DNA of 64,000 bases, from the NCBI GenBank assembly GCA_963709325.1, contig CAVPVV010000003.1:1827889-1891888 (forward strand). Reading direction: 5' to 3'. The position numbers and the translations under genes were made by a program. Below are positions 1 through 52,591 of the stretch, in pieces. The notes below the pieces were generated by a model that saw only the letters and a program-made list of their open reading frames with translations, had not been told where the DNA came from and made no database searches. The DNA is from an uncultured Acidobacteriota bacterium (lineage in GTDB: Bacteria; Acidobacteriota; Vicinamibacteria; Vicinamibacterales; UBA2999). Within the stretch, counting starts at the first letter, position 1; each line of letters starts with the position of its first letter.

Positions 1-1469
<1,469 letters not shown>

Positions 1470-1513
1470 TATTCTAACGGACGCGTGCGGAGTTATCGGC
1501 AGGGTGCAGCGTG

Positions 1514-1548
1514 CTTCTCACTTCTCACCTCTCACCTGTCACCTCTCT
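1514..1548. repeat. Tandem heptamer array (CTTCTCA CTTCTCA CCTCTCA CCTGTCA CCTCTCT)
   Basis: Read directly. It lies in the spacer between the DUF1835 stop (1532) and the topoisomerase start (1469), overlapping the last codons of the upstream ORF. Confidence 0.85.
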
Positions 1549-2536
1549 GAAGCCGCCTGTTGTCCTCGTCCCATCGCCAGAGCGATGACGTCGAGACACC
1601 CTCTCCGGGCAGCGTCATCAGGTGCACGCCTCCCAGCCAGCGGTTGATGCCGTTCAAGGCGATGCGATCCGCTTCGCCGGCGAGCACGCGCGCGCCGGTC
1701 TCGGTGAGCGTCAACCGCGGCGCCGGGTCGTCTTCCCGCCACCACTCGGGATCGCCGAAGCTGGCGGGCGCTTCGCCGACGACGGTGACGAGCGGCTGCG
1801 GCGCGGTGATGAGCGAGCGGATGTGATACCACCAGCCGAGATCGCCCATGAAGATGGCATCCTCGACTTCGTAATTCGAGTCGCGGAACGCGGCCCTTAG
1901 CGGCAGTGGGCCATCGGCGAGCGCGTCAAGCGTTTGCCGTTCGGTCCGCGACAAGCCGCCCTGCACCGAGGGGAACTGCTGCAGGTGGCGGGACAGCGCG
2001 GAGCGCAGCGTTGGCCAGGCGCCGGGATGATCGAAGCGCAACACGCCGGCCGGGTCTGGTGAGCGGAAGGCCGCCCATGCCGCGATCGCCGCGTCCCAAG
2101 CATCTTTCGAGACGGGCCGGCGCTCGTCGAACCACCGGGACAACTGCGCGTCGGGCTGTGCCGTCAAGTAGTCGTCGGCGAGAATCGCCGAGACCGAGGC
2201 GCGACGCGCGTCGCCTACGTCGCGCAACTGGCTCAGCACCTGCAGGACGTGGAGCTGATCGTAGAGGTCGTGCTCGAACCAGAGGACGACCTCGTCATCG
2301 TCCCGGGCGCTCGTCGTGAGCTGCTCGTCACGCGCCTTCATCCCGGTCTCAATCGCTTCGACGTCGTTCCATTCGCGGCCGAGAAACTCCGCACGCTCGT
2401 GGCGCAGCTCGGCCTCCGACAACCCGGCCCGGACGGGACCTTCGTGAAGCACGTCGTCCCAGGGAACGATCCGCCCCGGCACGCCCAGATCGTGCAGGCG
2501 CGAAACCGCAATGGAACCGTTGGTGACGTGAAGCAT
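1532..2536 (-). CDS. DUF1835 domain-containing protein
   Basis: Frame of track ORF 1532..2764. The ATG at 2534-2536 gives MLHVTNGSIAVSRLHDLGVPGRIVPWDDVLHEGPV...VVLWFEHDLYDQLHVLQVL, typical of DUF1835 proteins. The 76 upstream codons are low-complexity and overlap the repeat spacer. Confidence 0.7.
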   Translation of the reverse strand: MLHVTNGSIAVSRLHDLGVPGRIVPWDDVLHEGPVRAGLSEAELRHERAEFLGREWNDVEAIETGMKARDEQLTTSARDDDEVVLWFEHDLYDQLHVLQVLSQLRDVGDARRASVSAILADDYLTAQPDAQLSRWFDERRPVSKDAWDAAIAAWAAFRSPDPAGVLRFDHPGAWPTLRSALSRHLQQFPSVQGGLSRTERQTLDALADGPLPLRAAFRDSNYEVEDAIFMGDLGWWYHIRSLITAPQPLVTVVGEAPASFGDPEWWREDDPAPRLTLTETGARVLAGEADRIALNGINRWLGGVHLMTLPGEGVSTSSLWRWDEDNRRLQRGDR

Positions 2537-2547
2537 GGTGATGAGAT

Positions 2548-2603
2548 CGGGAGTTGGAACCGGGAGTCGGTCGGGAGTCGGGGTGACCTGGGTTCGGTGA
2601 CGG
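2548..2603. repeat. Degenerate tandem heptamer array (CGGGAGT / GGGAGTC type)
   Basis: cgggagt tggaacc gggagtc ggtcggg agtcggg gtgacct gggttcg gtgacgg, in the spacer between the stop at 2607 and the start at 2536. Confidence 0.75.
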
Positions 2604-2606
2604 TCC

Positions 2607-2924
2607 TCAGCGCGGATAGACGGTCTCGACGTAACCGTGCCGCTCCGTCCACTGCACGCGGCGCAGCATATCGTGTTGGCCACGCGAATTGACGAACACG
2701 AGGATTTCCCCGAACCGACCGCGCTCGGAGTCGCGGATGGCGCGGGCGATGGCGAGCGCCTCATCAGGGTGTCCCGCCTCCACCTCTACGACCAGCGCGC
2801 GATGCGCCGCGATCCGATGCGTGACCCGCCACCGGGGCGGCGGCGCTGGCCCCAGCGACACCGTTACCGCGATCAGCGTCGCGGTGACGACGGCTGCCGC
2901 AAAGAACGCCAGGACCCGCAGCAC
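2607..2924 (-). CDS. Hypothetical small membrane-anchored protein
   Basis: 105-aa ORF with an N-terminal hydrophobic segment (MLRVLAFFAAAVVTATLIAVTVSL) followed by a soluble domain. I recognise no family. Confidence 0.5.
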   Translation of the reverse strand: MLRVLAFFAAAVVTATLIAVTVSLGPAPPPRWRVTHRIAAHRALVVEVEAGHPDEALAIARAIRDSERGRFGEILVFVNSRGQHDMLRRVQWTERHGYVETVYPR

Positions 2925-3008
2925 CGCGGTACGATAACACCGCCCGCGGCGCGCCGTTCGGCTCCCGCTGCCAACTTCCGCGTCCCGGCTCCAGACTCCC
3001 GCCGCGAG

Positions 3009-4622
3009 CTACTCCCGCTTCCGCCGCGTCGCCGTCCGCTTCGCGGCGGTCTTCCGTGTACCCCCCGCCGCCTTCCGCGGCGCGCGGGTCCGGGGCTTCC
3101 GGGCCTTTACGATCGACTCGAGAATCGCCGATTCGTTCGACTCGGGCTGCTGCTCCGGATCTTCGATCTCCGTCGCCGGCGACGGGCGCGTCCCGACTTC
3201 GCCGACCTTCAGCCGGGTGACGTCGACTGCGCCGCCCTGGATGCGATTGCCGATGTCATCGTCCGGGAACTCGGCTGAAACGATTATCGCGGACGGGATC
3301 TGGTCGTGCACCTCCGGGCCCTCGCCGGTCTCGTCAACCACCCCCGGCACGGCCTGTCCGCCGTTGAGCAACGACCAGCCGTGCGGCACCGGACCGCGCG
3401 TCGAAGCGTCGGAACCTGCGAACACGCGCAGGCCGCCCTGCCGATCCCGCTCGAGCTTCAGCAACCCGTCCTTCTGGCACGCGCGCATGAGCTCGGCAAT
3501 CGAGCCGTAACGGCGCTCGTCGAAGCTGGGAACCGCGGCGCGCAGGAACTGCTTGAACTGGCGCGGGTACATCGGCCAGCGCGGCGGCGTCACGGCCTCG
3601 GCCAGCACGCGCCGCACGAGCAGCACACCTTCGCCGAGCGATGCGGCGTCCGCCGGCTCACGCCGCCCGTGACCGTGCTCGTCGCGCCTTGGGGCATAAC
3701 CAGGGGCGATCGCCGTCCCCTGATCCGCCGACGCATGATCTACCGGCGCGGCGACGACTTCGCCTTCGACGAGCGGCGCTGAATCGGCGGCCTCGCCCGC
3801 TTCCGGGGCGACGGCCGGGATGTCGGCCGCAACGACCGCCGAAACGACCGCGCCTGGTTCGCCTTCGATCAGTTCGACGAGGGTGCTGCGGCCCTGGTGC
3901 TTGAGCGTGACGAGCCCGTGCGCTGCCAGCTTGTCGGCGAAATCCCGGAAGCTCGACGAGCCGTAATCGCGCTCCGAGAACGACGAATCGAGCTGCAGCA
4001 GCGTGCTCTTGAGCAGCCCGAGCTGCGGGGTCACCTCGCGATCGGCGAGCACCTTGAGGGCGCGCTTGACCAGCGGCACGGAGACGTCGATCGGCTGCGA
4101 GCCGGCGGCGACGCGCGGCCGTTCGCCCTTGTCCACCCGCGGGGCGCGGGGATGGGGCACGACGTTCTCGTAGGCGATGAACTCGGTGCAGTTCTTCTGC
4201 ATCACCTGGCTGGTGAACGAGCGGCCGCCGACGACGAACACTTTGCGGTCGTACTGCTTGAGCTTCTCGACGAGCGTGATGAAGTCGCTGTCGCCGCCGA
4301 CGATGACGAAGGCGTTGATGTGGGCGTGGGTGAAGGCCATCTCGAGAGCGTCGAGGGCGAGGTTGATGTCGGCGCCGTTCTTGTCGCCGCCGGGCGTCAT
4401 GACCCGCTGGACGAGCCGGACCGCGTGATTCGACATCGCGCGGCCGTAGTCCCCGGAACGCTTCCAGTCGCCGTAGGCGATCTTCGTCACGATTTCGCCG
4501 CGTTCCTTGATCGCCTCGAGCACCGCCCCGATGTCGAACGGCAGGCCGAGCGTCGTCTTCACGCCGATCTCGACGTTGTCGAAATCGATGAAGACGGCAA
4601 TCTTCAGTTTTTGATCAGACAT
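3009..4622 (-). CDS. NYN-domain (LabA-like) protein with OST-HTH/LOTUS-like region and a basic C-terminal tail
   Basis: MSDQKLKIAVFIDFDNVEIG...GDWKR...GADINLALDALE...VIVGGDSDFITLVEKLK is the NYN/LabA signature. The central regions resemble OST-HTH. The C-terminus is Lys/Arg-rich (KARKPRTRAPRKAAGGTRKTAAKRTATRRKRE). Confidence 0.85.
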   Translation of the reverse strand: MSDQKLKIAVFIDFDNVEIGVKTTLGLPFDIGAVLEAIKERGEIVTKIAYGDWKRSGDYGRAMSNHAVRLVQRVMTPGGDKNGADINLALDALEMAFTHAHINAFVIVGGDSDFITLVEKLKQYDRKVFVVGGRSFTSQVMQKNCTEFIAYENVVPHPRAPRVDKGERPRVAAGSQPIDVSVPLVKRALKVLADREVTPQLGLLKSTLLQLDSSFSERDYGSSSFRDFADKLAAHGLVTLKHQGRSTLVELIEGEPGAVVSAVVAADIPAVAPEAGEAADSAPLVEGEVVAAPVDHASADQGTAIAPGYAPRRDEHGHGRREPADAASLGEGVLLVRRVLAEAVTPPRWPMYPRQFKQFLRAAVPSFDERRYGSIAELMRACQKDGLLKLERDRQGGLRVFAGSDASTRGPVPHGWSLLNGGQAVPGVVDETGEGPEVHDQIPSAIIVSAEFPDDDIGNRIQGGAVDVTRLKVGEVGTRPSPATEIEDPEQQPESNESAILESIVKARKPRTRAPRKAAGGTRKTAAKRTATRRKRE

Positions 4623-4627
4623 TCGTT

Positions 4628-4669
4628 TTCCTGATTCCTGATTCCCGGTTTCCGGTTCCCAATTTCTAG
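4628..4669. repeat. Tandem heptamer array (TTCCTGA x2, TTCCCGG, TTTCCGG, TTCCCAA, TTTCTAG)
   Basis: Read directly. It fills the spacer between the MBOAT-remnant stop (4666) and the NYN start (4622). Confidence 0.85.
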
Positions 4670-5411
4670 AATTGGAAGTAGATGAAGTCGAGGGAGACGC
4701 GGCTCCTGAGCACCAGGATGAGCGTCACCATCACTCCCGCCGCCGCTGCCTGCAGCAGCGTCCGGCTGATGCTGGAAGGCCCCATGCCGTCCAGCGCGCC
4801 TCCGCGGCCGCCACCAGCCGCCAGCGCCGCTCGCGTCCAAGTGCCCAGAGATCGTCCAGGAACAACGGCACGCCCCCGGTGGCGGCCAGGACGAGCAGGT
4901 AGATGCCTACCTGCCGCTCCATCACCGTGCTCTCCGAGGGGGAGAGCACGAGCCACCGCCGCAGAAAGTCGGGGTTGGTCTCCCGGAAGAAGAGCCAGCC
5001 GACAATCGCCGCGGTGACGGTGAGGGCGATCTGAACGAAGGCGAGCGGACCAGGCCAGCGCTCGGGCAGCTTCAGCAGCGTCCCGACGGTCCGCGTGGCG
5101 ACTACTAGTGTGCCATGGTAGAGGCCCCAAAGCACGTAATTCCAGCTGGCGCCGTGCCACAGCCCCGAAACCAGGAAGGTGGCCAGGAGGTTGGCCTCGC
5201 GCTGCAGCGCCTCCACCCGGTTCCCGCCCAGCGGAATGTAGACGAAGTCGCGAAACCAGGTCGAAAGCGAGATGTGCCAGCGGCGCCAGAAGACGGTCGG
5301 GCTGTGCGCGATGTAGGGATGGTTGAAGTTGAGCACCAGCTCGAAGCCGAACCAGCGCGCCGTCCCGCGGGCGATGTCGGAATAGGCCGAAAAATCGGCG
5401 TAGATCTGCAA
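4666..5411 (-). pseudogene. MBOAT family (AlgI/DltB-like) O-acyltransferase, C-terminal remnant with a frameshift
   Basis: LQIYADFSAYSDIARGTARWFGFELVLNFNHPYIAHSPTVFWRRWHISLSTWFRDFVYIPLGGNR...GLWHGASWNYVLWG (frame of 4731..5645). The family-typical ending ...SLDFIYFQF* is in the frame of 4666..5478, so there is a frameshift at about 4800-4860. Homology stops at about 5411, and there is no N-terminal half or start codon. Confidence 0.75.
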
Positions 5412-15990: not shown

Positions 15991-16084
15991 TTATGAATTC
16001 TACCGGGCACCCGGATGGTTCCGGCCTCGGCCATTCCCGTTCGAACGCCTCCTCTGCTAGCATCCGCAGGTGGAGGATCTGTTC

Positions 16085-16630
16085 ATGCGTGTGAAAGCTC
16101 TGCTCAACGTGGGGCTCGCGGCGGTCCTTGGCGTGCTGTCCAGCGCAACTGGACGAGCCCAGGCTCCTGCAGTCGAGCTCAAGGTGGGAGACGCCGCTCC
16201 GGCGTTCTCGCTGCCGGCGTCGGATGGCAAGACCCACAGCCTTGCCGATTCCAGAGGCAAGACCGTCATCCTGGCCTGGTTCCCCAAGGCCTTCACTGGT
16301 GGTTGAACCGCCGAGTGCAAGTCGCTCCGTGAGAGCGGCGCCCTGATTCGGCAGTACAACGTCGACTACTACATGGTGAGCGTGGACACGCTCGAGGACA
16401 ACACCAAGTTCGCGCAGACCCACGAAGCCGACTACCCGATCATGAGCGATGTCACCAAGGCCGTCGCCAAAGCCTACGGCGTTCTCGGCCCCGGCGACCT
16501 CGCCCGGCGCTGGACGTTCTACATCGGTCCTGACGGCAAGATCCTCCACATCGATAGAGCCGTCTCGCCCTCGACTTCGGGCCCGGACATGGTGAAGCAG
16601 CTCGGAGAGCTGAACGTCCCGAAGAAGTAG
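16085..16630 (+). CDS. Exported peroxiredoxin (Bcp/AhpC-TSA family), candidate selenoprotein with in-frame UGA at 16304-16306
   Basis: Track ORFs 16070..16306 and 16373..16630 are in the same frame with no other stop between them. Read-through gives ...GKTVILAWFPKAFTGG[TGA]TAECKSLRESG..., which places TGA where the family has the peroxidatic Cys (FPKxFTxGCT). GGAGG lies 8 nt before the ATG at 16085. The signal peptide is MRVKALLNVGLAAVLGVLSSATGRAQA. Confidence 0.75.
16321..16339 (+). promoter_or_regulatory. Candidate bacterial SECIS hairpin
   Basis: GUCGCUC-CGUGA-GAGCGGC forms 7 bp including one G-U pair. The loop contains G and U, and the stem starts 14 nt after the UGA. Confidence 0.4.
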
Positions 16631-16632
16631 CC

Positions 16633-16780
16633 GGGAAACACGAAGGGCACGAAGTTCACGAAGAAGTGCAGGGCATGGACGAGGCAGACAGCTGCTTCGC
16701 CCTTGCCCTTGTTGCTCTCTGTCGGGACCGCAGTATTCCCTTCGTGCTCTCCGTGTCCTTCGTGCCCTTCGTGTTGTCCC
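16633..16780. repeat. Long imperfect inverted repeat built from CACGAAG / CTTCGTG units
   Basis: AACACGAAGGGCACGAAG (16637-16654) is the perfect reverse complement of 16758-16775. Further CACGAAG / CTTCGTG copies lie inside the arms. It spans the prx-to-hydrolase spacer. Confidence 0.85.
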
Positions 16781-27719: not shown

Positions 27720-29151
27720 CCAGAACGTCCTCATCTGGGTCACGCTCATCTACTTCGCCATCGTCATCGGCGTGTCGCTCTGGGGATATCGGCGCGCGAC
27801 CTCGGAAGTCGAGTTCCTCGCCGCAGGACGCACCATCGGCCCCTGGGTCGGCGGTGCGGTGCTCGCCGCCACCCAGATCAGCGCCGGCACGTTCGTCGGC
27901 ACGCTGGGCCGTTCCTACCTCACCGGCGTGAGCTGGATGTGGGTCTGGTTCGGGGTGTGGTCCGGATGGGTCACCTCCGCCGTGTTCGTCGCGCCGAAGC
28001 TGCGCCGCTTCGGCGCCCTGACCGTCGCCGATTACGTGGGCACCCGGTTCGCGAGCGAGGGCGCCCGCACGCTGGCCGCCGCCCTGATCATCGTCTGCTA
28101 TTCGATCCTGCTGACCGCGCAGTTCCAGGCGATTGGCGAGATCGCCTCGGCGGTGTTCGGCCTGCCGCCGCTCGTGGCGATGACGGCGCTGCTGGCCAGT
28201 ACCGGGTTCTACACCGCGCTCGGCGGGGTCAGGGCCAGCTCGTACATCGAATTCATCCAGACGCTGATCATGGTGCTGGCGCTGGTGTGCGCGGTCCCGG
28301 TGGTGTTCGTGCACGTCGGCGGCTTCACGCCGCTCGGCGAGTACATCGGGTCGATCGACGCGCGCATCACAGGACAGTGGTTCTCCTGGCGCGAGCTCCT
28401 CGCCTTCAGCCTGGCGTTCGGCCTCGGCATCGCCGCGGCGCCCTACGAGATGACCCGCTACTACTCGATGCGGGACGTGGCCACGGTCCGCTACGCCATC
28501 GGCGTCTCGATGGTCCTGCAGCTGATCATCGGCGCCTGCGTGGCGACTCTCGGGATGGGGATGCGCGGGGTGTTTCCGTTCCTCCCGTCGCCCGACCAGG
28601 CCTCCAGCATCATGGCTTCGACGGTCATGCCACCGCTGCTCGGCTCGCTGTTCGTGGTGGCGATGCTCTCGGCGATCATGTCCACCGTCAATTCGATCCT
28701 GCTCGTCACCGGCGGCGCCTTCGCTCACGATCTCTACAAGCGCCTCGTGAACCCGGAAGCATCGGAGCGGCGGCTGGTGTGGGTGAACCGGCTGTCGATC
28801 GTAATCCTGGGCATCATCCCCTTCTGGTTCGCGCAGCAGCGACTCGGCGACGTCCAGACCATCGTTATCGAGCAGGCGAAATTCATCGCCAGCTTCTTCT
28901 TCGTACCAGTGGTGCTTGGCCTGAACTGGCGTCGCGGCACCCGAGAAGGCGCGATCTGGAGCATGGCAATGGGGTTCCTCGCGTGCCTGGTCTGGACCTT
29001 TACCCTCCAGCACAGCTTTTCAGGACACGGGATCGATTCGGTGGAAGTTGGCGTGATCGCGAGCGCGGTCACGTTCATCATCGTCAGCCGGCTGACGCCG
29101 CCGACGCCGGAGAAGAACCTCGCGATCTTTTTCGACGGGGAGAGGACCTGA
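27709..29151 (+). CDS. Sodium:solute symporter (SSS) family transporter
   Basis: Frame of 27277..29151, ATG at 27709. MIADQNVLIWVTLIYFAIVIGVSLWGYRR...FLAAGRTIGPWVGGAVLAATQISAGTFVG... It is polytopic throughout. Confidence 0.9.
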   Translation: MIADQNVLIWVTLIYFAIVIGVSLWGYRRATSEVEFLAAGRTIGPWVGGAVLAATQISAGTFVGTLGRSYLTGVSWMWVWFGVWSGWVTSAVFVAPKLRRFGALTVADYVGTRFASEGARTLAAALIIVCYSILLTAQFQAIGEIASAVFGLPPLVAMTALLASTGFYTALGGVRASSYIEFIQTLIMVLALVCAVPVVFVHVGGFTPLGEYIGSIDARITGQWFSWRELLAFSLAFGLGIAAAPYEMTRYYSMRDVATVRYAIGVSMVLQLIIGACVATLGMGMRGVFPFLPSPDQASSIMASTVMPPLLGSLFVVAMLSAIMSTVNSILLVTGGAFAHDLYKRLVNPEASERRLVWVNRLSIVILGIIPFWFAQQRLGDVQTIVIEQAKFIASFFFVPVVLGLNWRRGTREGAIWSMAMGFLACLVWTFTLQHSFSGHGIDSVEVGVIASAVTFIIVSRLTPPTPEKNLAIFFDGERT

Positions 29152-29216
29152 GGTTCTCGGGGTTCCCGAGGTTCGCGAGGCTCTCGGGGTTCGCTCTTGA
29201 GGTCTCGGGTGTTGGG
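29150..29216. repeat. Degenerate tandem array with about 9-nt period (TCGGGGTTC / CCGAGGTTC / GCGAGGCTC)
   Basis: gaggttc tcggggttc ccgaggttc gcgaggctc tcggggttc gctcttgaggtc tcgggtgtt, in the spacer between the SSS stop and the M28 start. Confidence 0.75.
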
Positions 29217-33783: not shown

Positions 33784-33818
33784 CCTTCTGCCTTGTGCCT
33801 TCTGCCTTCTGCCTTATC
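33784..33818. repeat. Tandem heptamer array (CCTTCTG CCTTGTG CCTTCTG CCTTCTG CCTTATC)
   Basis: Read directly, in the spacer between the mscL stop and the GGDEF-gene start. Confidence 0.85.
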
Positions 33819-43123: not shown

Positions 43124-44029
43124 TCAAGCGAGTGAGGAGCGAGCGAGCCATCGCAGGGCGCCGTCGCGGCTCTCGATGACGGCAAAGAAGCCGTGGCGCC
43201 GTTCGTCGTTCATCAGTGCGTCGAAGCGACTGCTGAAGCGAACACGGCCAGGCGGACACACGACGCAGAGCCGTATCCCGTAATTGCGGAGTCGCTGCAG
43301 GATGTCGCCGGCGTGGCCGGAGCTGACGTCGAAAAACCCGTCGGTCATGTTCGACGCAGAGAGCACCACGTTTCGCGTGTGATGGGAGAAGCACGCCTCG
43401 ATGATTCGGTTGGCGTCGCCGGGCATGGATAGCAGGCGCTGGTCCGGGACGCCCTCCAGGAACGCAACCCCGGCCTCCTCTACGCGCGTCAATCCCGGAG
43501 TCGCCGTCGCAGCCGCAGGTTCTGCAGCGCGCGCGAACCACCGCTCGTCGGCGAGGACGACCGACTCTTCGACCTGTCGATCCGGAATCGTCCAGTAGCG
43601 GCCGAGCAGCGTCACTTTCTCCTCCGGCGTAACGAGCCGGAAGCCATGCCGCTCGTAGAAGCGGATTGCCCAGGCTGCCGACGTCCAGGTGCCAATCAGG
43701 ATCGGGCGATCGGTGAGCGCGCGCAGGTGCGCAAGGAGCGCGGTGCCGAGCCCGCGGCCCTGCGCTCCGGTCCGGGTGTAGGCATGACGGATCAGGGCCA
43801 CGTCCTTCACCGGCTGGATACCCATGACCGCGTCAATCCGATCGGCTTCGACGGCGGCCCAGAAGCCCACACCCGCGTCCATCTCCGACTCCAGCTCCTC
43901 GAGCGGCATGTACGGGTCGTGCCAGCGGTCGGCGGGGATCACGCCCCGATAGGCTTCGGCGGCGTCGTTGATGACCGCGAAGATCCCGCCGACATCAGCG
44001 GTCGAGCATCGCCGGATCACCATGTTCAT
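43124..44029 (-). CDS. GNAT N-acetyltransferase fused to a DUF4180-like domain
   Basis: N-terminal half has ..IRHAYTRTGAQGRGLGTALLAHL..FYERHGF (GNAT motif A). C-terminal half has ..NRIIEACFSHHTRNVVLSASNMTDGFFDVSSGHAGDILQRLRNYGIRLCVV.. (DUF4180-like). Confidence 0.75.
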   Translation of the reverse strand: MNMVIRRCSTADVGGIFAVINDAAEAYRGVIPADRWHDPYMPLEELESEMDAGVGFWAAVEADRIDAVMGIQPVKDVALIRHAYTRTGAQGRGLGTALLAHLRALTDRPILIGTWTSAAWAIRFYERHGFRLVTPEEKVTLLGRYWTIPDRQVEESVVLADERWFARAAEPAAATATPGLTRVEEAGVAFLEGVPDQRLLSMPGDANRIIEACFSHHTRNVVLSASNMTDGFFDVSSGHAGDILQRLRNYGIRLCVVCPPGRVRFSSRFDALMNDERRHGFFAVIESRDGALRWLARSSLA

Positions 44030-44037
44030 CCATTGAG

Positions 44038-44065
44038 CCTTCGTGCTCTTCGCGTCCTTCGTGTT
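44038..44065. repeat. CCTTCGTG-family repeat copy
   Basis: ccttcgtgctcttcgcgtccttcgtg matches 16739-16764 at 24 of 26 positions. Confidence 0.8.
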
Positions 44066-46541
44066 ACTCGTTCTCCGGCAGCACCGGGAGCGGCACCTCG
44101 CCCGGGATCACCCGCGTGAACCCGCCACGCTGCATCAGCTCGCGCCCCTTGCCGCCGCGGCCGGTCACCTCGTACTTGGCGGTGCTGATCGTCTGCTCGC
44201 CGCCGCGCGAGGTCTCCACCGTCATCAGGTCGCGATCGCCGGTCGACGCAATTGCGCCGATCACCCGGTCGTCGTCCTGCACCTTGATGAGGATCACGCC
44301 GCGGCCCGGCCCGGACAGGAAGTTGACCTCCTCGACCGAGCAGAGGATGGCGCGCGCGTCTTTGGTCGCGGCGATGATCGTTTCCTCGCCGGTCACGCAG
44401 GCCACGGCAACCACTTCCTGGCCCTCCGGCACGCGAGCGTAGCGGCGCCCGGCCCGGGTGCTCGGTTCGACGAAACCCGCCAGCGAGAAACGGAGGCTGT
44501 AGCCATCGCTCGTCACTGCCATCGCGTGCACCGGGGGCGCCTCGGCTTCGGCATCTGCGTTCTTCCCGTTCCGCGCTCCGTTCTCTTCCTCTCCTTCCGG
44601 CACGTGTCCGATGTCCCCGCGCACTCTCGCGTCGAGGCTGAGCGCGGCGATCACCCGCTCGCCGTCCTTGAACTTGAACAGCTTCTGGACCGGCTCGCCA
44701 TATCCGGTCGACGCCGGCACATCGACGAACCGAGCGGTGTATGCCGATCCGAAGTTCGAGAAGAACACCACGGTGGCGCGGGTCGAGCCGGCCATCGCGG
44801 CAAGGACGCTGTCCCCTTCGCGAAGCCGGGTCGTGGCCAGGTCCTTCACCTCTTTCTGCCGCTTCACCCACCCGTCCCGCGACACGATCACGACGTTGTC
44901 CTCGTCGACGATGAAGGCGTCGGCGGAGTACTCGACCTCCTCGGTCTCCTCGATGCGGGTGCGTCGCGGGTCGATCTTCGGATCGCCGTACTTCTTCTGG
45001 ATCTCCTGCAGCTCATCGCGAACCAGCGTCCAGCGGCTGTTCTCGTCCTTGAGCAGCGCGTTGATCTGCCGGGCCCGCTTGCGCTTTTCGGACAGCTCCT
45101 GCTGGATGACGAGGATCTCCAGGCGGGCCAGCCGATAGAGTTTCAGTTCGAGGATCGCGTCGGTCTGCTCGGCGTCGAGCGAGAACCGCTTGATGATCTT
45201 CTCGGCGGCGTCGGCTTTGCCGTCGCTCTTGCGGATGATCTTGATGATCTCGTCGAGCGCGTCGAAGACCTTCTCGAATCCCTCGAGGATGTGGATCCGC
45301 TTCTGCAGCTGGCCGAGCTCGTGCTCGAGCCGCGACGTGACCACATCGAGGCGGAAGTGCAGGAAGTGCCAGAGCATCTGCTTGAGATCGAGCCGCTCGG
45401 GGCGTCCGACCTCCGCGTTTTCCGTCGGCACCAGGCAGGTCAGGTTCACCGCGAACGAGGTCTGGAGCGAGGTGTGCTTGAAGAGGTACGCCATGACCAG
45501 GTTCTCGTCGGCGCTTCCCTTCAGCTCCAACTCGATCCGCACATCGTCGGTGGACAAGTCCTTGACGTCCACCAGGTGCGGCATCTTGCGGCTGAGCACC
45601 ACCTCGCCGATCTGCTCGACGAGCTGCGCCTTGTTGACGCCGTACGGCACGCTCGTGACGTAGACGGTCTTGGCGCTCCGTGACGTCGGGCCCAGTTCCC
45701 AGGTGCTGCGAATCCGCACCGACCCGGAGCCGGTCTGGTAAATCTCTTTCAGCTCGGACGGCGAGTTGAGGATGTGACCGCCGGTCGGAAAGTCCGGCCC
45801 CTTCACCCAGCGACACAGCTGCACCGACGAAAGATCGGGATCGTCCAGCAGCTTGATCAGCGCATTGCAGATCTCGTGGAGGTTGTGCGGCGGGATATTG
45901 GTGGCCATCCCGACCGCGATCCCGGTGGCGCCGTTGACCAGCAGGTTCGGGATGCGCGACGGGAGCACCACCGGCTCCTGCTTGGTCCCGTCGTAGCTCG
46001 GGCGGAAGGGGACCGTTTCCCGCTCGATCTCCAGCAGCACTTCGTCGGAGAGCCTGGCCAGCCGGCATTCGGTGTAGCGCATCGCCGCGGCGGCGTCGCC
46101 GTCGAGCGATCCGAAGTTGCCGGAGCCGTCGATCAGCGGGTAGCGCAGCGAGAAGGGCTGCGCCATGCGGACCAGGGTCTCGTAGATCGCCGAATCGCCG
46201 TGCGGGTGGTAGTTGCCCATCACGTCGCCGACCACCTTGGCGCACTTGCGGTGCTTGGCGTCGGCGGTGAGGTTCTGCTGCCACATCGTGTAAAGGATGC
46301 GGCGCTGCACCGGCTTGAGCCCGTCACGCACATCGGGGAGCGCGCGTGAGGTGATCACCGACAGCGCGTAATTCAGGTAGCGCGACTGTGCAGCCTCGTG
46401 GAGCGACACGGCCGATCCGTCGCCCGGCGGCACGGGAGGACCGTCACCGCCTCGCGGCGGCGCGGGCGGCGGTGGCGCGGTTGGTTCGATCGGGCTGTCG
46501 TTGTCGTCGAAGAGCGAGGGTTCGGCCGGGCGCTTTGCCAT
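44064..46541 (-). CDS. Type IIA topoisomerase A subunit (GyrA/ParC family), intact
   Basis: ..[75 protein letters not shown].. 825 aa. Confidence 0.9.
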
Positions 46542-46543
46542 CA

Positions 46544-46620
46544 GAACAGGAGAGAGGAGACAGGAGACAGGAGATAGACAGGAACCAGGAACCAGGAATC
46601 AGGAATCAGGAATCAGAATA
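46544..46620. repeat. Tandem heptamer array (GGAGAGA/GGAGACA, then AGGAACC x2, AGGAATC x3)
   Basis: Read directly, in the spacer between the MBL stop (46647) and the topoisomerase start (46541). Confidence 0.85.
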
Positions 46621-46646
46621 GCGGAATTCCGACCAGCGGCGGCGGC

Positions 46647-47648
46647 TTAACGGACGCGGAGCTTGCCGGCCTTCGCGCACTCCTCGGCGACCGTCAGATA
46701 GCGCGCGACCGCCTCGGGGCCAACGACGTAGGGGTGCGGATCGCCGGGCTTGCGCGTGGCCATGGCCGGCAGCTTCGCCTTGGAGCCGTCGTAGTTCGTG
46801 TGGTTAGACAGAATCACGTCGGCTCGCGCTGCGGCGGCGAGACTGCGGAAGTTCTGCGCCGAGGCGATATAGCGATCGAACCAGAAGCTGTCGGGCCGCT
46901 CCGGCGTGATGTAGCCGGCGCGGTTCCTGACCCAGTTGAACGCGGTGCCGCCCCAGTAGGCGGCGGTGTGCGCACGCCCCCCATCGCGAACCGGAATCAG
47001 CGTGGAGATAGTGCCGAGCGTGTGACCGGGCGTGAAGTGCAGCGTCAGCGTGGTGTCGCCGAGCGTGAGCTTCTGGCCGTCCGTGGCCACCACGTCGCGC
47101 TTCGGCTTGCGCCACGTCCCACCGGTCTTCGACAGCAGATCCCAGTCCGCCTCCGAGATCACCACGCGGGCGTCGAACCGATCCTGCAGGAACGCAGCGC
47201 CGCCGACGTGATCGTAGTGCGCGTGACTGACGAGGACGTACTTGATCGTCGCCGGATCGAGACCGAGGGTGCGCAGGCCGCCCACCACCTGCGGTTCCAC
47301 GGAGTAATCGAAGATCGGATCGATGATGATGATGCCCTCGGAGGTGGTCACCGCCCACGCCGAGTACTCCTGCTCGCCGACGAAGTAGAGGTTGTCGAAA
47401 ACCTTGACCGGTTTGGCTTGCCAGCTCTCACGCGGCGGCGGGCCCGCCTGCCGCGCCGGCGCTGCTGGCGCGGGCTGGACCGCAGCAGGCGCCTCGCACA
47501 ACCCGAAGAGCGCGGTGAAGTCCTTCCCCGCTGCCGCCCGCGCGGCCGCGACATGGCTTTCAACCGAGTCCTGCTCCGACCCCGCCAGCGGCGCGGCGGC
47601 AAGCATTGCCGACACGCCGAGCGCCGACCAGATCCTCGAGCGGCTCAT
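46647..47648 (-). CDS. Subclass B3-type metallo-beta-lactamase-fold hydrolase, exported
   Basis: Signal peptide MSRSRIWSALGVSAMLAAAPLAG. B3-type ligand set VSHAHYDHVGG (HxHxDH), HFTPGHTLG, and LSNHTNYD. Confidence 0.8.
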   Translation of the reverse strand: MSRSRIWSALGVSAMLAAAPLAGSEQDSVESHVAAARAAAGKDFTALFGLCEAPAAVQPAPAAPARQAGPPPRESWQAKPVKVFDNLYFVGEQEYSAWAVTTSEGIIIIDPIFDYSVEPQVVGGLRTLGLDPATIKYVLVSHAHYDHVGGAAFLQDRFDARVVISEADWDLLSKTGGTWRKPKRDVVATDGQKLTLGDTTLTLHFTPGHTLGTISTLIPVRDGGRAHTAAYWGGTAFNWVRNRAGYITPERPDSFWFDRYIASAQNFRSLAAAARADVILSNHTNYDGSKAKLPAMATRKPGDPHPYVVGPEAVARYLTVAEECAKAGKLRVR

Positions 47649-47677
47649 AAGGCGGATTATAGGCGCCGCCGCGCGCC

Positions 47678-47743
47678 AGGAGTCAGGAGTCAGGAGTCAG
47701 GAGGTAGGAACTAGGAACCGGGAACCAGGAACCAGGAACTAGG
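47678..47743. repeat. Tandem heptamer array (AGGAGTC x3, AGGAGGT, AGGAACT, AGGAACC, GGGAACC, AGGAACC, AGGAACT, AGG)
   Basis: Read directly. It abuts the left end of the IS remnant. Confidence 0.85.
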
Positions 47744-48398
47744 GGTGTTGTACCAGGACATGAGTCACGGCGCCTGGCGGCAGTAGAGTTTACGCCGTTC
47801 GACCGGCGCCATGCGGCCCAGGCTGAGATGCGGTCGCTCATGGTTGTGGTACCAGACGAATGCCTCGACGGCGCGGCTGCGGGCGGCAAACGTGCAGAGC
47901 GGCCGCTACGGCCGCAGGACCAGGTGACGAATGCCCAACGCGGCGCAGACATCCTGGAACCGCGTCAACCGGTCTGCATCGCGCGCGTGGCGCATCGTGA
48001 AGGCGAACGCGTTATCGGTGAGGACGGCTTCGATGGGATACGGGAGCGTGGCCGCGACCTGCTCGAGGAACGCGGCCGCCGCCGCACGGGTCTGCTCGGT
48101 CCGAATCGCGACCACGGCCTCGCGGCTGAAGTCGTCGACGGCGGCGAACACGAGGTCATGCCGCGCATTGCGCAGCGCCGGCAGCTACTTCAGGTCGAGA
48201 TGGAGCAGCTCGCCGGGCCGCTGCTTTTCGTAGCGCCGCGGCGTGGGCCGCGCCGGTCGCGGCAGCTGATTGACGCGGCGTCGCGCCTGGATGCGCTGCA
48301 CCGTGCTCCGGCCAGAGGCCCACGGCGTGCGCGATGCGGGCCGCACTCAGCCGTTGGGCAGGCAACCGCAGTGACACTGATGTCCTGGTACCGCTCAC
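47743..48398 (-). mobile_element. Decayed IS481-family-like insertion sequence (about 656 bp) with terminal inverted repeats and a fragmented transposase
   Basis: Inverted repeats GGTGTTGTACCAGGACATGAGTCAC (47744-47768) and GTGACACTGATGTCCTGGTACCGCTCACC (48371-48399) share a 12/12 core, GTACCAGGACAT. Minus-strand fragments: ..STVQRIQARRRVNQLPRPARPTPRRYEKQRPGELLHLDLK*, ..FAAVDDFSREAVV..AVLTDNAFAF..LGIRHLVLRP*, and ..FVWYHNHERPHLSLG.. (rve-type integrase core with stops and deletions). CTAG flanks both ends (47739-47742 and 48399-48402). Confidence 0.75.
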
Positions 48399-48399
48399 C

Positions 48400-48531
48400 T
48401 AGTTCCTAGTTTTTAGTTCCTGGTTCCTAGTTCCTGGTTCCTAGTTCCTGGTTCCTAGTTCCTGATTCCTAGTTCCTGATTCCTATCTTCTGTCTCCTCT
48501 TTCCTCTCTCCTCTCTCCTATTTCCTGCCTC
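48400..48531. repeat. Longest tandem heptamer array (about 19 units: TAGTTCC/TGGTTCC/TGATTCC, then TCTCTCC-type)
   Basis: Read directly. Its orientation is inverted relative to the arrays at 47678-47743 and 46544-46620. It ends 3 nt before the M64 stop codon. Confidence 0.9.
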
Positions 48532-48534
48532 GTG

Positions 48535-50485
48535 TCACGGAACCGTAACCGTTGCCGGTACGCTTGGCGTACTAGAGCCGCACGCGTTCGTCGCCGCGAC
48601 GCGCAGCTCGTAAGTCCCCGGCCCAGCAACCGCGCTGAGGATCCGTCCGGTAACCGGGAAGCTGCCGGTGTAACTGCCGGCCACCGACAGCACGAAGCCG
48701 GAGGGTGCGCTTCCGCTCGGCGGCAGGTTCCAGGTCACCGTCACCCGGTTCCCATCTCGGGCCGTGGTCAGGTTGACCGGCGTTTGCGGCGGCGTGCACG
48801 TGCCGGGGAACGCCAGCGTCACCGGAGTGGACGGCAGGCTCGTCCCCGCTCCGTTCACGGCTCGCACGCTGAACGTGTAGGTACCCGGCGGGACGCTCAC
48901 ATAGCTGAAACTCTCCGTCGCCGGCAGCGTCACCGACGTGCTGATCGATCCGCTCACGTCGAGGACGATTCCGCTCGGCGCTCCGCCACCGGCGTTCTGC
49001 CAGGCGAGCGACAGTCGTGGAACCAGCGGCGCCGCCGAGCAGGTTCGTCGGAGTACCAGGAGGCTGTGGCACGTTGACGTAGATACGAATCTCGTTCGAG
49101 GCCCCGGAACGCGCCGCGGCGTTCAGCGCGTGGATGCGCACGTAGAAGGCCCCGGTCGGCGCGGTGAACGTGAACGATGGCGCCGCGCTGCCGGTGGAGA
49201 TGCTGGCCAGCACCTGGCCGGGCGACACGCCGCCCTCGAGCACGTAGCCGGTCGGCGCGAACGCCGTCGGTGGCGTCCAGCTCAAGGTCACCGTATTGCC
49301 GGCAATCGATGACGCGGTCAGGAACGTCGGCACCGCGGTGACGCCGTTCTGCACGGTCACATCCCACGCGCGGCTTTCCGACAGCAGCGCCGTCGGATCG
49401 CTCCTGACCAGGCCGGTCGTGTCCTGGATCGACACCTCGACGTGATGAGTGCCGAGCGGCAGGATGTCCGAGCTGAACCTCGTGCCGGTGGTAGTGAGAA
49501 CGCCATTGACGAACCAGCGCACAAGGAGCGCATGGGTTCTCGGCGACGGGACGGCAACCTCGAACAGGTTTGGCACCCCGAGCACGACGGTCGCGGCGCT
49601 CGTGGATGGGCTCACCCCGTCGATCGGCGACACGAAGTTGTAGATGCGCCGCACGTGCTGCTCGGTGTTGATCTGCTCGAAGGGACGGCCCAGCGATCGC
49701 ATCTTCGAGTCGTAGGTCGGACGGTAAGCGCCCGACGCGCAGTAGACCGCGCCATCGTACAGCCCCGGCATTCCGTTCACCGCGCCGCCGGTCGGCACCG
49801 GCGTCCCGGGATCGATCCAGTGGCGCCACTTGATGAACTCGCGCCTCGTTTCACGGGTCGCGTTCGCGTTGGTCGGCTCGGTCGTCACGCACGGCGGCGG
49901 CGAATAGTTGTACTCGTCGGCCAGCTGCGCAAACGTGTGGCCGTTTTCGTGCAGCACCAGCTCGGTGGCCTGGGCATGGAGCGATGCGACGGCGACCGCG
50001 CCGCCCGAGCCGCCGTATTCCGCGTCGTTGACGATGACCAGCACGAGGTCCCGGGCGTCGGCAGGAATCGCGCTCCTGGTCAGCACCGCGTTGACGTTGG
50101 CCGTCGAGACGCAGATGAGACGCTGGATATTCGAGCAGTTGTAGGTGGCGTTCAGCGCCGTATCCACGTAGGCGCCGCGCTCGGGGTGATCCGCGCCCGA
50201 CTGCGCGCTGACCACGTCCACTCGATGCACGTTGAAATAGGCCGCGTACTCCAGATACGGCTCCTGGGCGAAGAGCCGCTGCACCTGCACCTCGATCTGC
50301 GCCGCGTACGCCCCGGAGGCGATCTGATCGGCAGTGAAGCCGTCGCCGAGGATCACCAGGTCCACCCGGTTCGCGCTCGGCCCGCCGCTGCGGATGGTCG
50401 TCACCGGCTCGGCCATCGCGAGCGCGGCAGACCAGGCCCAGCACAGGGCAATCAGCGGGCCCGTCACTCGTCTCCGCGCGGTCAT
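48535..50485 (-). CDS. M64-family (IgA-peptidase-like) zinc metallopeptidase with C-terminal FN3-like repeats (frameshift at about 49020-49040)
   Basis: The ATG at 50483-50485 overlaps the upstream TGA. Signal peptide [25 protein letters not shown]. Also ..VLVIVNDAEYGGSGG..LVLHENGHTFAQLADEY.. The FN3-like modules continue in the frame of 48535..48957 (..SLAWQNAGGGAPSGIVLDVSGSISTSVTLPA..). Confidence 0.8.
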
Positions 50486-51042
50486 CGCACTGTCACCTGG
50501 ATCAGGCCAAGGCTCCGGAGCAGGAACTGTCCGCCGTCCGAGTAGGTCTCGTAGACGTGGAGCGCCGTGGTCGCGGAATCGGGCACCACGACCAGGAGCT
50601 CGACCTCCGGCCGATAGAGCAGCTCGCCGGAGAGTTCGCCCGTCGGTCCGGGCAGCTCGGCGCGCAGGAGCCGCGGATCGCGCTGCTTCTGCCAGCTGGT
50701 CTCGCGCCCGTTCGCGTCGGTCGCGACGATCACCAGATCGTGTTCGGCAAGCTGCGGGTCGCGCTCGCGCTGAAACGGACCGCGGATGTCGCTCCTCCCC
50801 ACCACTTCGAAACTGTTGACCGGCGTCACCGCGGCGGCGGGAACCGGTTCGCCGGTGGCGCTTGTCGCGGCAACCCACCGGACATGAAGCTCGGGAACGG
50901 TCTGATTCGAAACGAGCGAGGCGACAGGTGGAACCGCAGACACGACCTCGGCGGCGAACCGGTCACGCTGGGCCAGGACGGGGCCGCTGAGGGCCAACAA
51001 CACCGCCCACACGACTAGGGACTGGCAAAGGATCGTACCCAT
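50482..51042 (-). CDS. Hypothetical secreted protein, translationally coupled to the M64 peptidase
   Basis: Frame of 50482..51228. ATG at 51040-51042. Signal-like [26 protein letters not shown] recognise no family. Confidence 0.6.
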
Positions 51043-52555: not shown

Positions 52556-52576
52556 TCTTGTGCCTTCTGCCTTTTG
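52556..52576. repeat. CCTTCTG-family heptamers (TCTTGTG CCTTCTG CCTTTTG)
   Basis: 52557-52573 is identical over 17 nt to 33792-33808. Confidence 0.8.
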
Positions 52577-52591
52577 CCGTATCGTTTCCGC

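Follow-up and report, generated by a model that had tools for sequence, protein, structure and literature searches.

What are the short tandem arrays that fill spacers between genes in a 64,000-nt stretch of DNA from an uncultured Acidobacteriota bacterium (assembly GCA_963709325.1, contig CAVPVV010000003.1, positions 1,827,889 to 1,891,888; this whole stretch is hereafter the window)? The window has a GC content of 0.67 and comes from a Vicinamibacterales bacterium, its closest relatives being Vicinamibacterales metagenome-assembled genomes (MAGs), in one of which the gene for topoisomerase subunit A (44064–46541) has a counterpart of 98% identity. We consider it somewhat probable that the arrays are fast-evolving, recombinogenic and often hairpin-forming long simple-sequence repeat (LSSR) DNA with units of 7–9 nt. 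The repeat class fills roughly one in ten intergenic spacers in Vicinamibacterales, and the window arrays extend a known class of repeat to a new clade. What is new here is their turnover, their arrangement in inverted pairs with the G-rich arm first, an IS481 element in the loop of one pair, an inverted segment and, in relatives, the bracketing of cargo genes.

Arrays were sought by a strict self-match test, which required 18 or more of 21 positions to match at lag p (lags 3–15) and had Markov simulations as control. It returned seven arrays in the window at lag 7, every one intergenic, and none in the simulations; lags between 3 and 15 other than 7 and 14 gave no array. Tandem Repeats Finder (TRF) reported period-7 arrays at 1516–1547, 4628–4645, 33784–33815, 46546–46574, 46579–46616, 47677–47703, 47706–47743, 48398–48485, 48481–48526 and 52557–52578, and units of ~9 nt at 16639–16663, 16738–16773 and 29150–29192. 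A first-pass annotation of the sequence had listed array sites, and TRF arrays lie at nearly all of them; 2548–2603 holds spaced motifs rather than a period-7 array, and 2962–3001 has no TRF tandem array. It had noted a period of about 9 nt once, whereas three sites have such units (16633–16780, 29150–29216 and 44038–44065). Its description of the arrays as AT-richer stands, most having a GC content of 0.45–0.59 against 0.67 for the window, as do the two long-range identities that it reported: 33792–33808 and 52557–52573 are identical at 17/17 nt, and 16739–16764 and 44038–44063 at 24/26. Head-to-tail units of 5–11 nt beyond chance, over-representation of period 7 and length variation among close relatives place the window arrays among LSSRs. 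A CRISPR array was considered and rejected, the units being 7–9 nt long, contiguous and without unique spacers rather than repeats of 25–40 nt. Rfam gave no match at the gathering threshold across the whole window.

The breadth of the phenomenon was assessed in a clade sample of 80 related loci (996 kb, GC 61–72%), drawn from assemblies of varied projects, assemblers and read technologies, both short-read and long-read. At least one strict-test array was found in 29 of the 80 loci; period 7 accounted for 47 arrays, periods 8 and 9 for 13 each, and other periods for ~0. The same heptamer words are shared by many loci and many genomes, and four copies of AGGAAYC were found in >118 genome contigs from many phyla. 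In four soil and rhizosphere metagenomes, the word depth of array bins ran from hundreds to thousands against ~2–10 for flanking genes. An assembly artefact, which the first-pass annotation had named as a possible refutation, does not explain the arrays, since the same kinds occur in independent short-read and long-read assemblies of relatives and their words are deep in independent soil metagenomes. For the array bins 46552–46635, 47644–47727 and 48400–48483, word depth in soil DNA metagenomes was ~24 to 3900.

Genes in the clade sample were called by third-position GC, and the calls are rough, start codons above all. One relative carries a very long GACGACT array (L073, 897–1136; ~34 copies with a 21-nt super-period) where the rough gene caller placed an open reading frame (ORF); the repeat may be coding, or a spacer may have been miscalled. 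Seven contigs of the sample (L004, L008, L010, L016, L018, L019 and L022) are labelled Bifidobacteriaceae, Cyanobacteriota or Acidimicrobiia; their topoisomerase gene is 78–86% identical to the Vicinamibacterales one, and they are probably mis-binned or mislabelled MAGs.

The arrays of the window and the features bearing on them are as follows, with a strand given for genes and for the insertion sequence (IS) element.

1514–1548: solo heptamer array, TCTCACC in 4.6 copies on the plus strand and GGTGAGA on the transcribed minus strand (TRF and strict test), between the stop of a 338-aa gene (1532) and the start of a parE-like gene (~1460).
2548–2603: left junction spacer of an inverted segment, three GGGAGT(C/T) motifs 11–13 nt apart, ~10 nt upstream of the start of the 338-aa gene (~2537, minus strand) and C-rich on the sense strand of that gene.
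2607–2924, minus strand: 105-aa gene conserved in Vicinamibacterales (52 homologues), with an N-terminal hydrophobic stretch and no Pfam family.
2962–3001: spacer at the right junction of the inverted segment, with CTCCCG/GACTCCCG motifs complementary to those at the left junction.
4628–4669: solo array, TTCCTGA in 2.6 copies decaying to TTCCCGG/TTTCCGG (TRF and strict test), filling the spacer from the MBOAT stop to the NYN start (both minus strand); its sense strand reads AGGAATC, with AGGA 8 nt ahead of the ATG.
16633–16780: inverted pair of 9-mer arrays without cargo, (A)CACGAAG(G) in three copies, a loop of ~75–83 nt and CCTTCGTG(N) in four copies, G-rich arm first, between the AhpC stop (16630) and the S15 peptidase start (16796).
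29150–29216: solo 9-mer array, GAGGTTCTC in 4.8 copies, G-rich on the sense strand, beginning at the stop codon of an SSF transporter gene and upstream of an M28 peptidase gene.
33784–33818: solo heptamer array, CCTTCTG in 4.6 copies on the plus strand and GCAGAAGG on the sense minus strand (TRF and strict test), starting at the MscL stop codon and upstream of a HisKA_7TM gene.
44038–44065: solo array, CCTTCGTG(N) in three copies, between the topoisomerase stop and the start of a GNAT gene (minus strand).
46544–46620: compound heptamer array, ACAGGAG in 4.1 copies then CAGGAAT in 5.4 copies on the plus strand (TRF and strict test), C/T-rich on the minus sense strand (TTCCTGA, TCTCCTG), ending 2 nt ahead of the topoisomerase ATG.
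47677–47743: G-rich arm of an inverted pair, CAGGAGT in 3.9 copies then AGGAACC in 5.4 copies (TRF and strict test), ~18 nt upstream of a TATAAT that lies 7 nt before the ATG of a metallo-beta-lactamase (MBL)-fold protein gene (47648, minus strand).
47744–48399, minus strand: decayed IS481-family element, the loop of the pair 47677–47743 / 48398–48531.
48398–48531: C-rich arm of the same pair, a CCTAGTT/CCTGGTT 14-mer making 12.6 heptamer copies, then TCCTCTC in 5.6 copies, ~41 nt downstream of an M64 peptidase stop (48572, minus strand); its sense strand reads AGGAACY.
52556–52578: short solo array, CTTCTGC in 3.1 copies, between the stop of a PALP-enzyme gene (52540) and the start of an amidase gene.

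Two neighbouring genes of these arrays appear broken. The parE/gyrB-like gene (121–1460, minus strand) was matched by its orthologue in three reading frames (1460–1362, 1360–758 and 939–121), which implies two frameshifts: either the gene is a pseudogene or the window sequence contains indel errors. The AhpC/TSA peroxiredoxin is split between two ORFs (16070–16306 and 16373–16630, plus strand), one corresponding to the N-terminal half of the Pfam model and the other to the C-terminal half; here too the window appears to have a frameshift or gap. An exact-protein look-up of the MBL-fold protein gave no match.

Orthologous spacers were compared with those of the closest relative (L001), whose DNA is colinear with that of the window and 94% identical, a comparison that the first-pass annotation had proposed for copy number and that revealed changes of unit, indels, length and family. 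The array at 46544–46620 is orthologous in the two genomes and differs by unit substitutions and a small indel, and the one between the PALP-enzyme and amidase genes belongs to the same family in both and is longer in L001. After the topoisomerase stop, the CACGAAGG array of the window is replaced in L001 by the unrelated CCCCAAG. Metagenome contigs also show array variants. Over greater distances, the array before the topoisomerase start recurs down to ~73% protein identity with a drifting YCCTGAY-like core. In many species it ends 2–11 nt ahead of the start codon, too close to leave room for a Shine-Dalgarno (SD) sequence. The convergent spacer between topoisomerase and AhpC is occupied in L018 by a CACGAAG pair and in L006 by an unrelated one. 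The presence of different families and lengths in orthologous spacers shows that the place of an array is kept while its sequence turns over or gives way to another. Replacement is thus seen directly between genomes of 94% identity; turnover within an array would proceed by slippage.

The spacers are also sites of larger rearrangement. The first-pass annotation treated 47678–47743 and 48400–48531 as separate simple arrays; they are the two arms of an inverted pair, complementary over up to 89 nt at 76–82% in many registers, and the 656 bp between the arms (47677–47743 and 48398–48531) are a decayed IS481-family element (Pfam rve E = 3.4e-13; NCBIfam IS481 E = 1.5e-37). Its rve integrase core contains in-frame stops and lacks the N-terminal domain, and its terminal inverted repeats are GGTACCAGGACA (48391–48380) and TGTCCTGGTAC (~47765–47755). 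The remnant is missing from L001 and from one soil-metagenome contig and is therefore a presence/absence polymorphism; positions 47665–48536 of the window correspond to 54 bp in L001, where the unit is another one, AGGCTTC. A second rearrangement is an inverted gene segment of ~400 bp between two array-bearing spacers: by blastn orientation, 2617–2948 is inverted relative to six relatives representing approximately four independent lineages, whereas the flanks 1400–2540 and 3009–4700 keep their orientation in the same six. Two proteins of closest relatives (P0001 and P0002; 97% and 85% identity) are encoded on contigs too short to show the polarity of the inversion. The breakpoints lie in two spacers carrying GGGAGTC and GACTCCC motifs, and relatives too carry arrays in those junction spacers, including the CCCGACT family. 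The link of the arrays to IS insertion and inversion is one of association, and it gives direct support to the role as recombination and IS hotspots that had been among the initial suggestions. The 105-aa ORF within the inverted segment was considered as mobile cargo and rejected as such, being a syntenic core gene of Vicinamibacterales.

A further difference in gene content has an array at its edge. The MBL-fold and M64 peptidase genes (46647–50878) stand between the topoisomerase and PALP-enzyme genes in the window and L001. Upstream of the topoisomerase gene, the alignment to L002, L003, L004 and L009 resumes with the PALP gene, from which we take the 46647–50878 block to be an insertion or a deletion. 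Its boundary on the topoisomerase side is the array 46544–46620.

Inverted arrangement is common in the clade. Separated arrays of the same family formed 16 inverted pairs, 'direct' pairs being mostly one array broken by a few bases, and inverted pairs account for roughly a third of the scored clade arrays (16 pairs, ~100 arrays). Such pairs can fold into long hairpins, in which a shift of register is tolerated. The G-rich arm came first in 15 of the 16 (P = 5e-4). The spacer 16633–16780, initially taken as a single array, is such a pair: its arms (16637–16664 and 16748–16775) are 89% complementary over 28 nt, and the predicted RNA fold has a free energy of −85.6 kcal/mol (z = −7.6). Considered as a miniature inverted-repeat transposable element, it has inverted arms, but no empty site was found for it. 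The CACGAAG family recurs as G-first inverted pairs in L005, L018, L029 and L035, in at least two different contexts.

Stems predicted for the pairs range from −60 to −100 kcal/mol, and this great stability is one reason to ask whether the pairs are selected terminators, insulators or mRNA-stabilizing hairpins that stand in for U-tract terminators in a genome of high GC, as REP/BIME sequences do in enterobacteria. Pairs are frequent in convergent spacers (8 of the 22 examined), the same convergent spacer always has some pair though the families differ, and consensus scans around the arrays predicted no canonical intrinsic terminators, no excess of terminators and no σ70-type promoter. Pairs and arrays occur in divergent spacers too, however, most window arrays are solo and unable to form hairpins, and relatives with an empty site do without any array. 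Sense and antisense folds in co-directional spacers showed no asymmetry of stability (n = 10, P = 0.38), so nothing singles out RNA over DNA as the selected form. Taken together, these observations make a selected terminator function rather unlikely. Some genes in the same material look leaderless, a −10-like hexamer standing 6–7 nt ahead of the start codon: TATAAT at the MBL-fold gene (47648–47668, minus strand; kept in L001), TATCGT 6 nt before the GTG start of the 105-aa gene (2924–2936; kept in four relatives) and TAGAAT ahead of a gene in L014 (~10880).

Spacer class did not affect occupancy in the clade, arrays being present in 28/279 co-directional (10%), 15/115 convergent (13%) and 11/106 divergent (10%) spacers (chi-square P = 0.67). 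The arrays had been thought restricted to co-directional spacers, and TRF does find none in the listed divergent and convergent spacers of the window, but these six are too few to carry a claim about distribution, and clade-wide the restriction disappears. The accompanying remark that orientation is not constant is true as far as it goes, although a strand rule exists: the sense strand is G-rich in 28 of the 39 arrays nearest a stop and C-rich in 22 of the 29 nearest a start (Fisher P = 2e-4), the start-side count being inflated by one orthologous spacer, that ahead of the topoisomerase gene, which contributes ~10 cases. Stop codons occur in 20 of 62 C-strand units against 8.6 expected (P = 3e-4, unit-level test). 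SD-like cores on the G strand are enriched in the window families (z = 5.3) and not in the relatives (z = 0.3), and the enrichment was for that reason dropped as a general property.

These regularities at gene ends raise the possibility that the arrays act in cis as RNA elements of untranslated regions, both 5′ and 3′. They would be tandem sites for a protein that binds single-stranded RNA (S1, cold-shock proteins with a ~7-nt footprint, or CsrA), or mimics of SD and anti-SD sequences, that tune translation and insulate cistrons. Arrays lying 0–50 nt from starts or stops under a strand rule like that of Xanthomonas (PMC4692102), an array 2–11 nt before the topoisomerase start with no space for an SD as described for TAACTGA repeats (PMC4679880), the stop codons of the C-strand units and the SD cores of the window families speak for such a role. 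It fares worse against the lack of SD enrichment in relatives, against unit sequences that vary so widely between and within genomes that no single protein-binding motif emerges, and against the swapping in of unrelated families among close relatives whose flanking genes are unchanged. In soil metatranscriptome contigs, array words were near zero in the bins 46552–46635, 47644–47727 and 48400–48483, which is weak evidence given how sparse the contigs are; over 43800–48800 their coverage is deep only where the topoisomerase gene is conserved, and there it probably stems from other taxa. The hint is of arrays that are abundant as DNA, yet not as abundant stable RNAs. We put little probability on an RNA-level function as the explanation of the arrays. 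A specific version, a CsrA sponge made of repeated AGGA, was rejected, the relatives having units without GGA.

A different origin for the arrays is suggested by elements with cargo genes in relatives. One relative (L014) has two long-loop pairs, one around a GxxExxY PD-(D/E)XK gene (PF13366 E = 4e-39, TIGR04256) and the other around a four-helix-bundle gene (PF05635, TIGR02436), both genes being lower in GC than the genome. Relatives without these cargo genes have plain short spacers and no arrays, and such array-free empty sites identify the arm–ORF–arm unit as a discrete insertion. At GxxExxY loci from many phyla (L199–L252), an exact inverted flank match of at least 14 nt was found in 24 of 47, compared with 2 of 130 control small genes (P = 1e-14); this test replaced a looser one (at least four shared inverted 8-mers) that had a 44% background. 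The arms at GxxExxY loci are tandem CAC(A/G)GAG(N) 8-mers conserved across phyla, with TCAGGAA(A/C) units, the main family of the window, in Opitutaceae and Limisphaerales. Of the 11 four-helix-bundle genes examined, all 11 lay between inverted heptamer arrays, and several of these had a hexamer pair nested in them. The four-helix-bundle arms (L253–L257, L265–L270) consist of AGTT(A/T)AA heptamers, and the purine-rich arm is always upstream at both kinds of locus. A literature search found no description of GxxExxY or four-helix-bundle genes bracketed by inverted tandem arrays.

It is possible, if doubtful, that the arrays derive from small hairpin insertion elements, of which they would be the arms or arm relics, and whose autonomous copies carry a GxxExxY PD-(D/E)XK ORF or an Avd-like four-helix-bundle ORF ('23S rRNA IVS protein', IVP, after the intervening sequences (IVS) of 23S rRNA). 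The units would then offer the cargo protein several sites to bind or form the stem for RNase III, and the cargo-less pairs and solo arrays of the window would be non-autonomous derivatives. The bracketing statistics and the empty sites argue for such elements, the period seems tied to the cargo (7 for IVP, mostly 8 for GxxExxY), and the CACGAAGG pair of the window resembles GxxExxY arms. Against their extension to the window, tblastn and hidden Markov model searches found no GxxExxY or four-helix-bundle ORF there, the loops of the window pairs being occupied by an IS remnant or an ordinary conserved gene, or else empty, and for most unit families of the window no cargo element with such arms was found. 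Among AGGAAYC loci across phyla, 74 of 87 arrays are solo, a GxxExxY gene is nearby in only 1 of 118 loci and there is no G-first bias, so that a model of cargo and pairs cannot be generalized; no target-site duplication was obvious at the cargo element with empty sites. The bolder proposition, that tandem 7–9-nt arrays are the arms of a widespread and so far undescribed class of hairpin insertion elements and that the window arrays are non-autonomous copies or relics of it, strikes us as improbable. If true, it would explain the long-puzzling excess of heptanucleotide repeats of the short tandemly repeated repetitive (STRR) type in many phyla.

The base composition of the arrays bears on the idea that they are non-B DNA (G-quadruplex, i-motif or H-DNA) acting on transcription or replication, as proposed for GGGNATC repeats. 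In several arrays the strands are strongly asymmetric in purines and pyrimidines, 48486–48527 being 93% pyrimidine, and some units of relatives have G3–G4 tracts (GGGGATC, GGGATCC, TCAGGGG). Most window units contain only GG (AGGAAYC, CAGGAGT, GCAGAAGG), however, and many units of relatives have no G-runs (AGTTTAA, CTACCGG, GACGACT), which makes a general role of this kind very improbable.

We return, then, to simple-sequence repeat DNA as the preferred account. Copy number would change by slipped-strand mispairing, and new arrays would be acquired through recombination or through hairpin elements that insert, the latter suggested by the arm–small ORF–arm units that are discrete insertions in relatives. 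Inverted arrays would serve as substrates for inversion and targets for insertion, and transcribed pairs would form long stems between cistrons. Effects on neighbouring genes, such as hairpins at 3′ ends or unstructured C-rich leaders with stops in three frames, would be secondary and are unproven. Several observations weigh against slippage as the whole of the story: identical unit families recur at distant loci, a strand rule holds at gene ends, stop codons are in excess in C-strand units, and the same spacers are persistently occupied by different families. What slippage alone leaves unexplained points to selection or an active mechanism of dispersal. The inverted match between the junctions 2548–2603 and 2962–3001, moreover, is now short (18 nt, 83%), and given so short a surviving match we only infer recombination between these arrays.

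Heptanucleotide arrays have been known in bacteria since 1990, when STRR sequences were recognized. Those of cyanobacteria are said to be tandem intergenic heptamers with several unit families per genome, a description credited to Mazel and colleagues (1990), and the analogy drawn in the first-pass annotation is apt to that extent. The window arrays depart from them in sequence and host: the STRR1–3 units CCCCAGT, TTGGTCA and CAACAGT are not among the TRF consensus units of the window, and the host phylum differs. CCCCAGT, which we take to be the STRR1 unit, occurs only in L045, where 588–649 hold a TCAGGGG array and then a CCCCAGT array. The REP/BIME/REPIN sequences of proteobacteria are dispersed extragenic repeats that form inverted hairpin doublets, can host IS elements and spread via RAYT transposases. 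The arrays described here are like them in intergenic dispersal, hairpin doublets and IS hosting, but REP units are single imperfect palindromes of ~20–40 nt whereas ours are non-palindromic tandem 7–9-mers; no RAYT appeared among the general Pfam hits of the 64-kb window and the short loci, in searches that were not aimed at RAYT.

Beyond cyanobacteria, heptanucleotides are reported as the most abundant class of LSSR in most bacterial genomes, with polymerase slippage proposed for the 7-nt step (Mrázek 2007, as quoted in PMC4679880 and PMC4692102). The LSSRs of that survey (Mrázek, Guo and Shah 2007) resemble ours in head-to-tail units, dominance of period 7 irrespective of unit sequence, non-coding location and phylogenetic scatter; as far as we found, the survey includes no Vicinamibacterales, and G-first pairs and wholesale replacement lie outside its description. 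The first-pass annotation knew of no equivalent in high-GC bacteria. Abundant repeats of 5–11 nt are nevertheless cited for Burkholderia, Actinobacteria and Xanthomonas (Mrázek 2007, cited in MacGregor 2015, PMC4679880), and the GGGAATC arrays of Xanthomonas (Rehm et al. 2015, PMC4692102) are intergenic, lie 0–50 bp from ORFs, often form inverted pairs, favour the non-coding strand if upstream and the coding strand if downstream, and keep their location while length and sequence vary. High-GC host, position, strand rule, inverted pairs and conserved location thus recur in our arrays, and the GGGAATC / GGGGA(T/C)T units of Xanthomonas and Nostoc have relatives in AGGAATC, GGGAACC and GGGAGTC of the window and GGGGATC and GGGATCC of its relatives. 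Unlike those systems, several unrelated unit families share one genome here, most without the G3 tracts that a G-quadruplex needs; in the window, G3 is confined to the three GGGAGT(C/T) motifs at 2548–2603, short of the G3–G4 pattern of Xanthomonas and Nostoc. Rehm et al. (PMC4692102) also found repeat regions more conserved than controls, whereas ours coincide with IS insertion and inversion.

The TAACTGA arrays of Beggiatoaceae, Cyanobacteria and Bacteroidetes (MacGregor 2015, PMC4679880) end just before start codons, lack an SD sequence and, the unit containing a stop codon, place stops in all three frames, with binding of S1, Csp or Csr proposed. Ours are similar in ending a few nucleotides before starts without an SD, in units with a stop codon that thereby falls in every frame and in indels of 7-nt steps between strains; the unit is another one, and only some of our arrays face starts, many following stops in the opposite orientation or pairing inversely. 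IVS of 23S rRNA with an S23p/four-helix-bundle ORF (e.g., Coxiella, PMC4990558) likewise place the ORF in an inverted-repeat loop, as do the discrete insertions with PF05635 and TIGR04256 ORFs in relatives, but the elements here are intergenic with stems of tandem 7–9-mers, and the window itself has no such ORF. Our literature search found no description of such arrays for Acidobacteriota.

The arrays show Vicinamibacterales, an abundant and poorly cultured soil clade, to be rich in heptanucleotide arrays. The strand rule shared with Xanthomonas, the G-first pairs, the association with inversion and IS insertion and the bracketed families of small ORFs are testable leads. For annotation, the arrays are landmarks of hypervariable spacers and a likely cause of breaks and misjoins in soil-metagenome assemblies.

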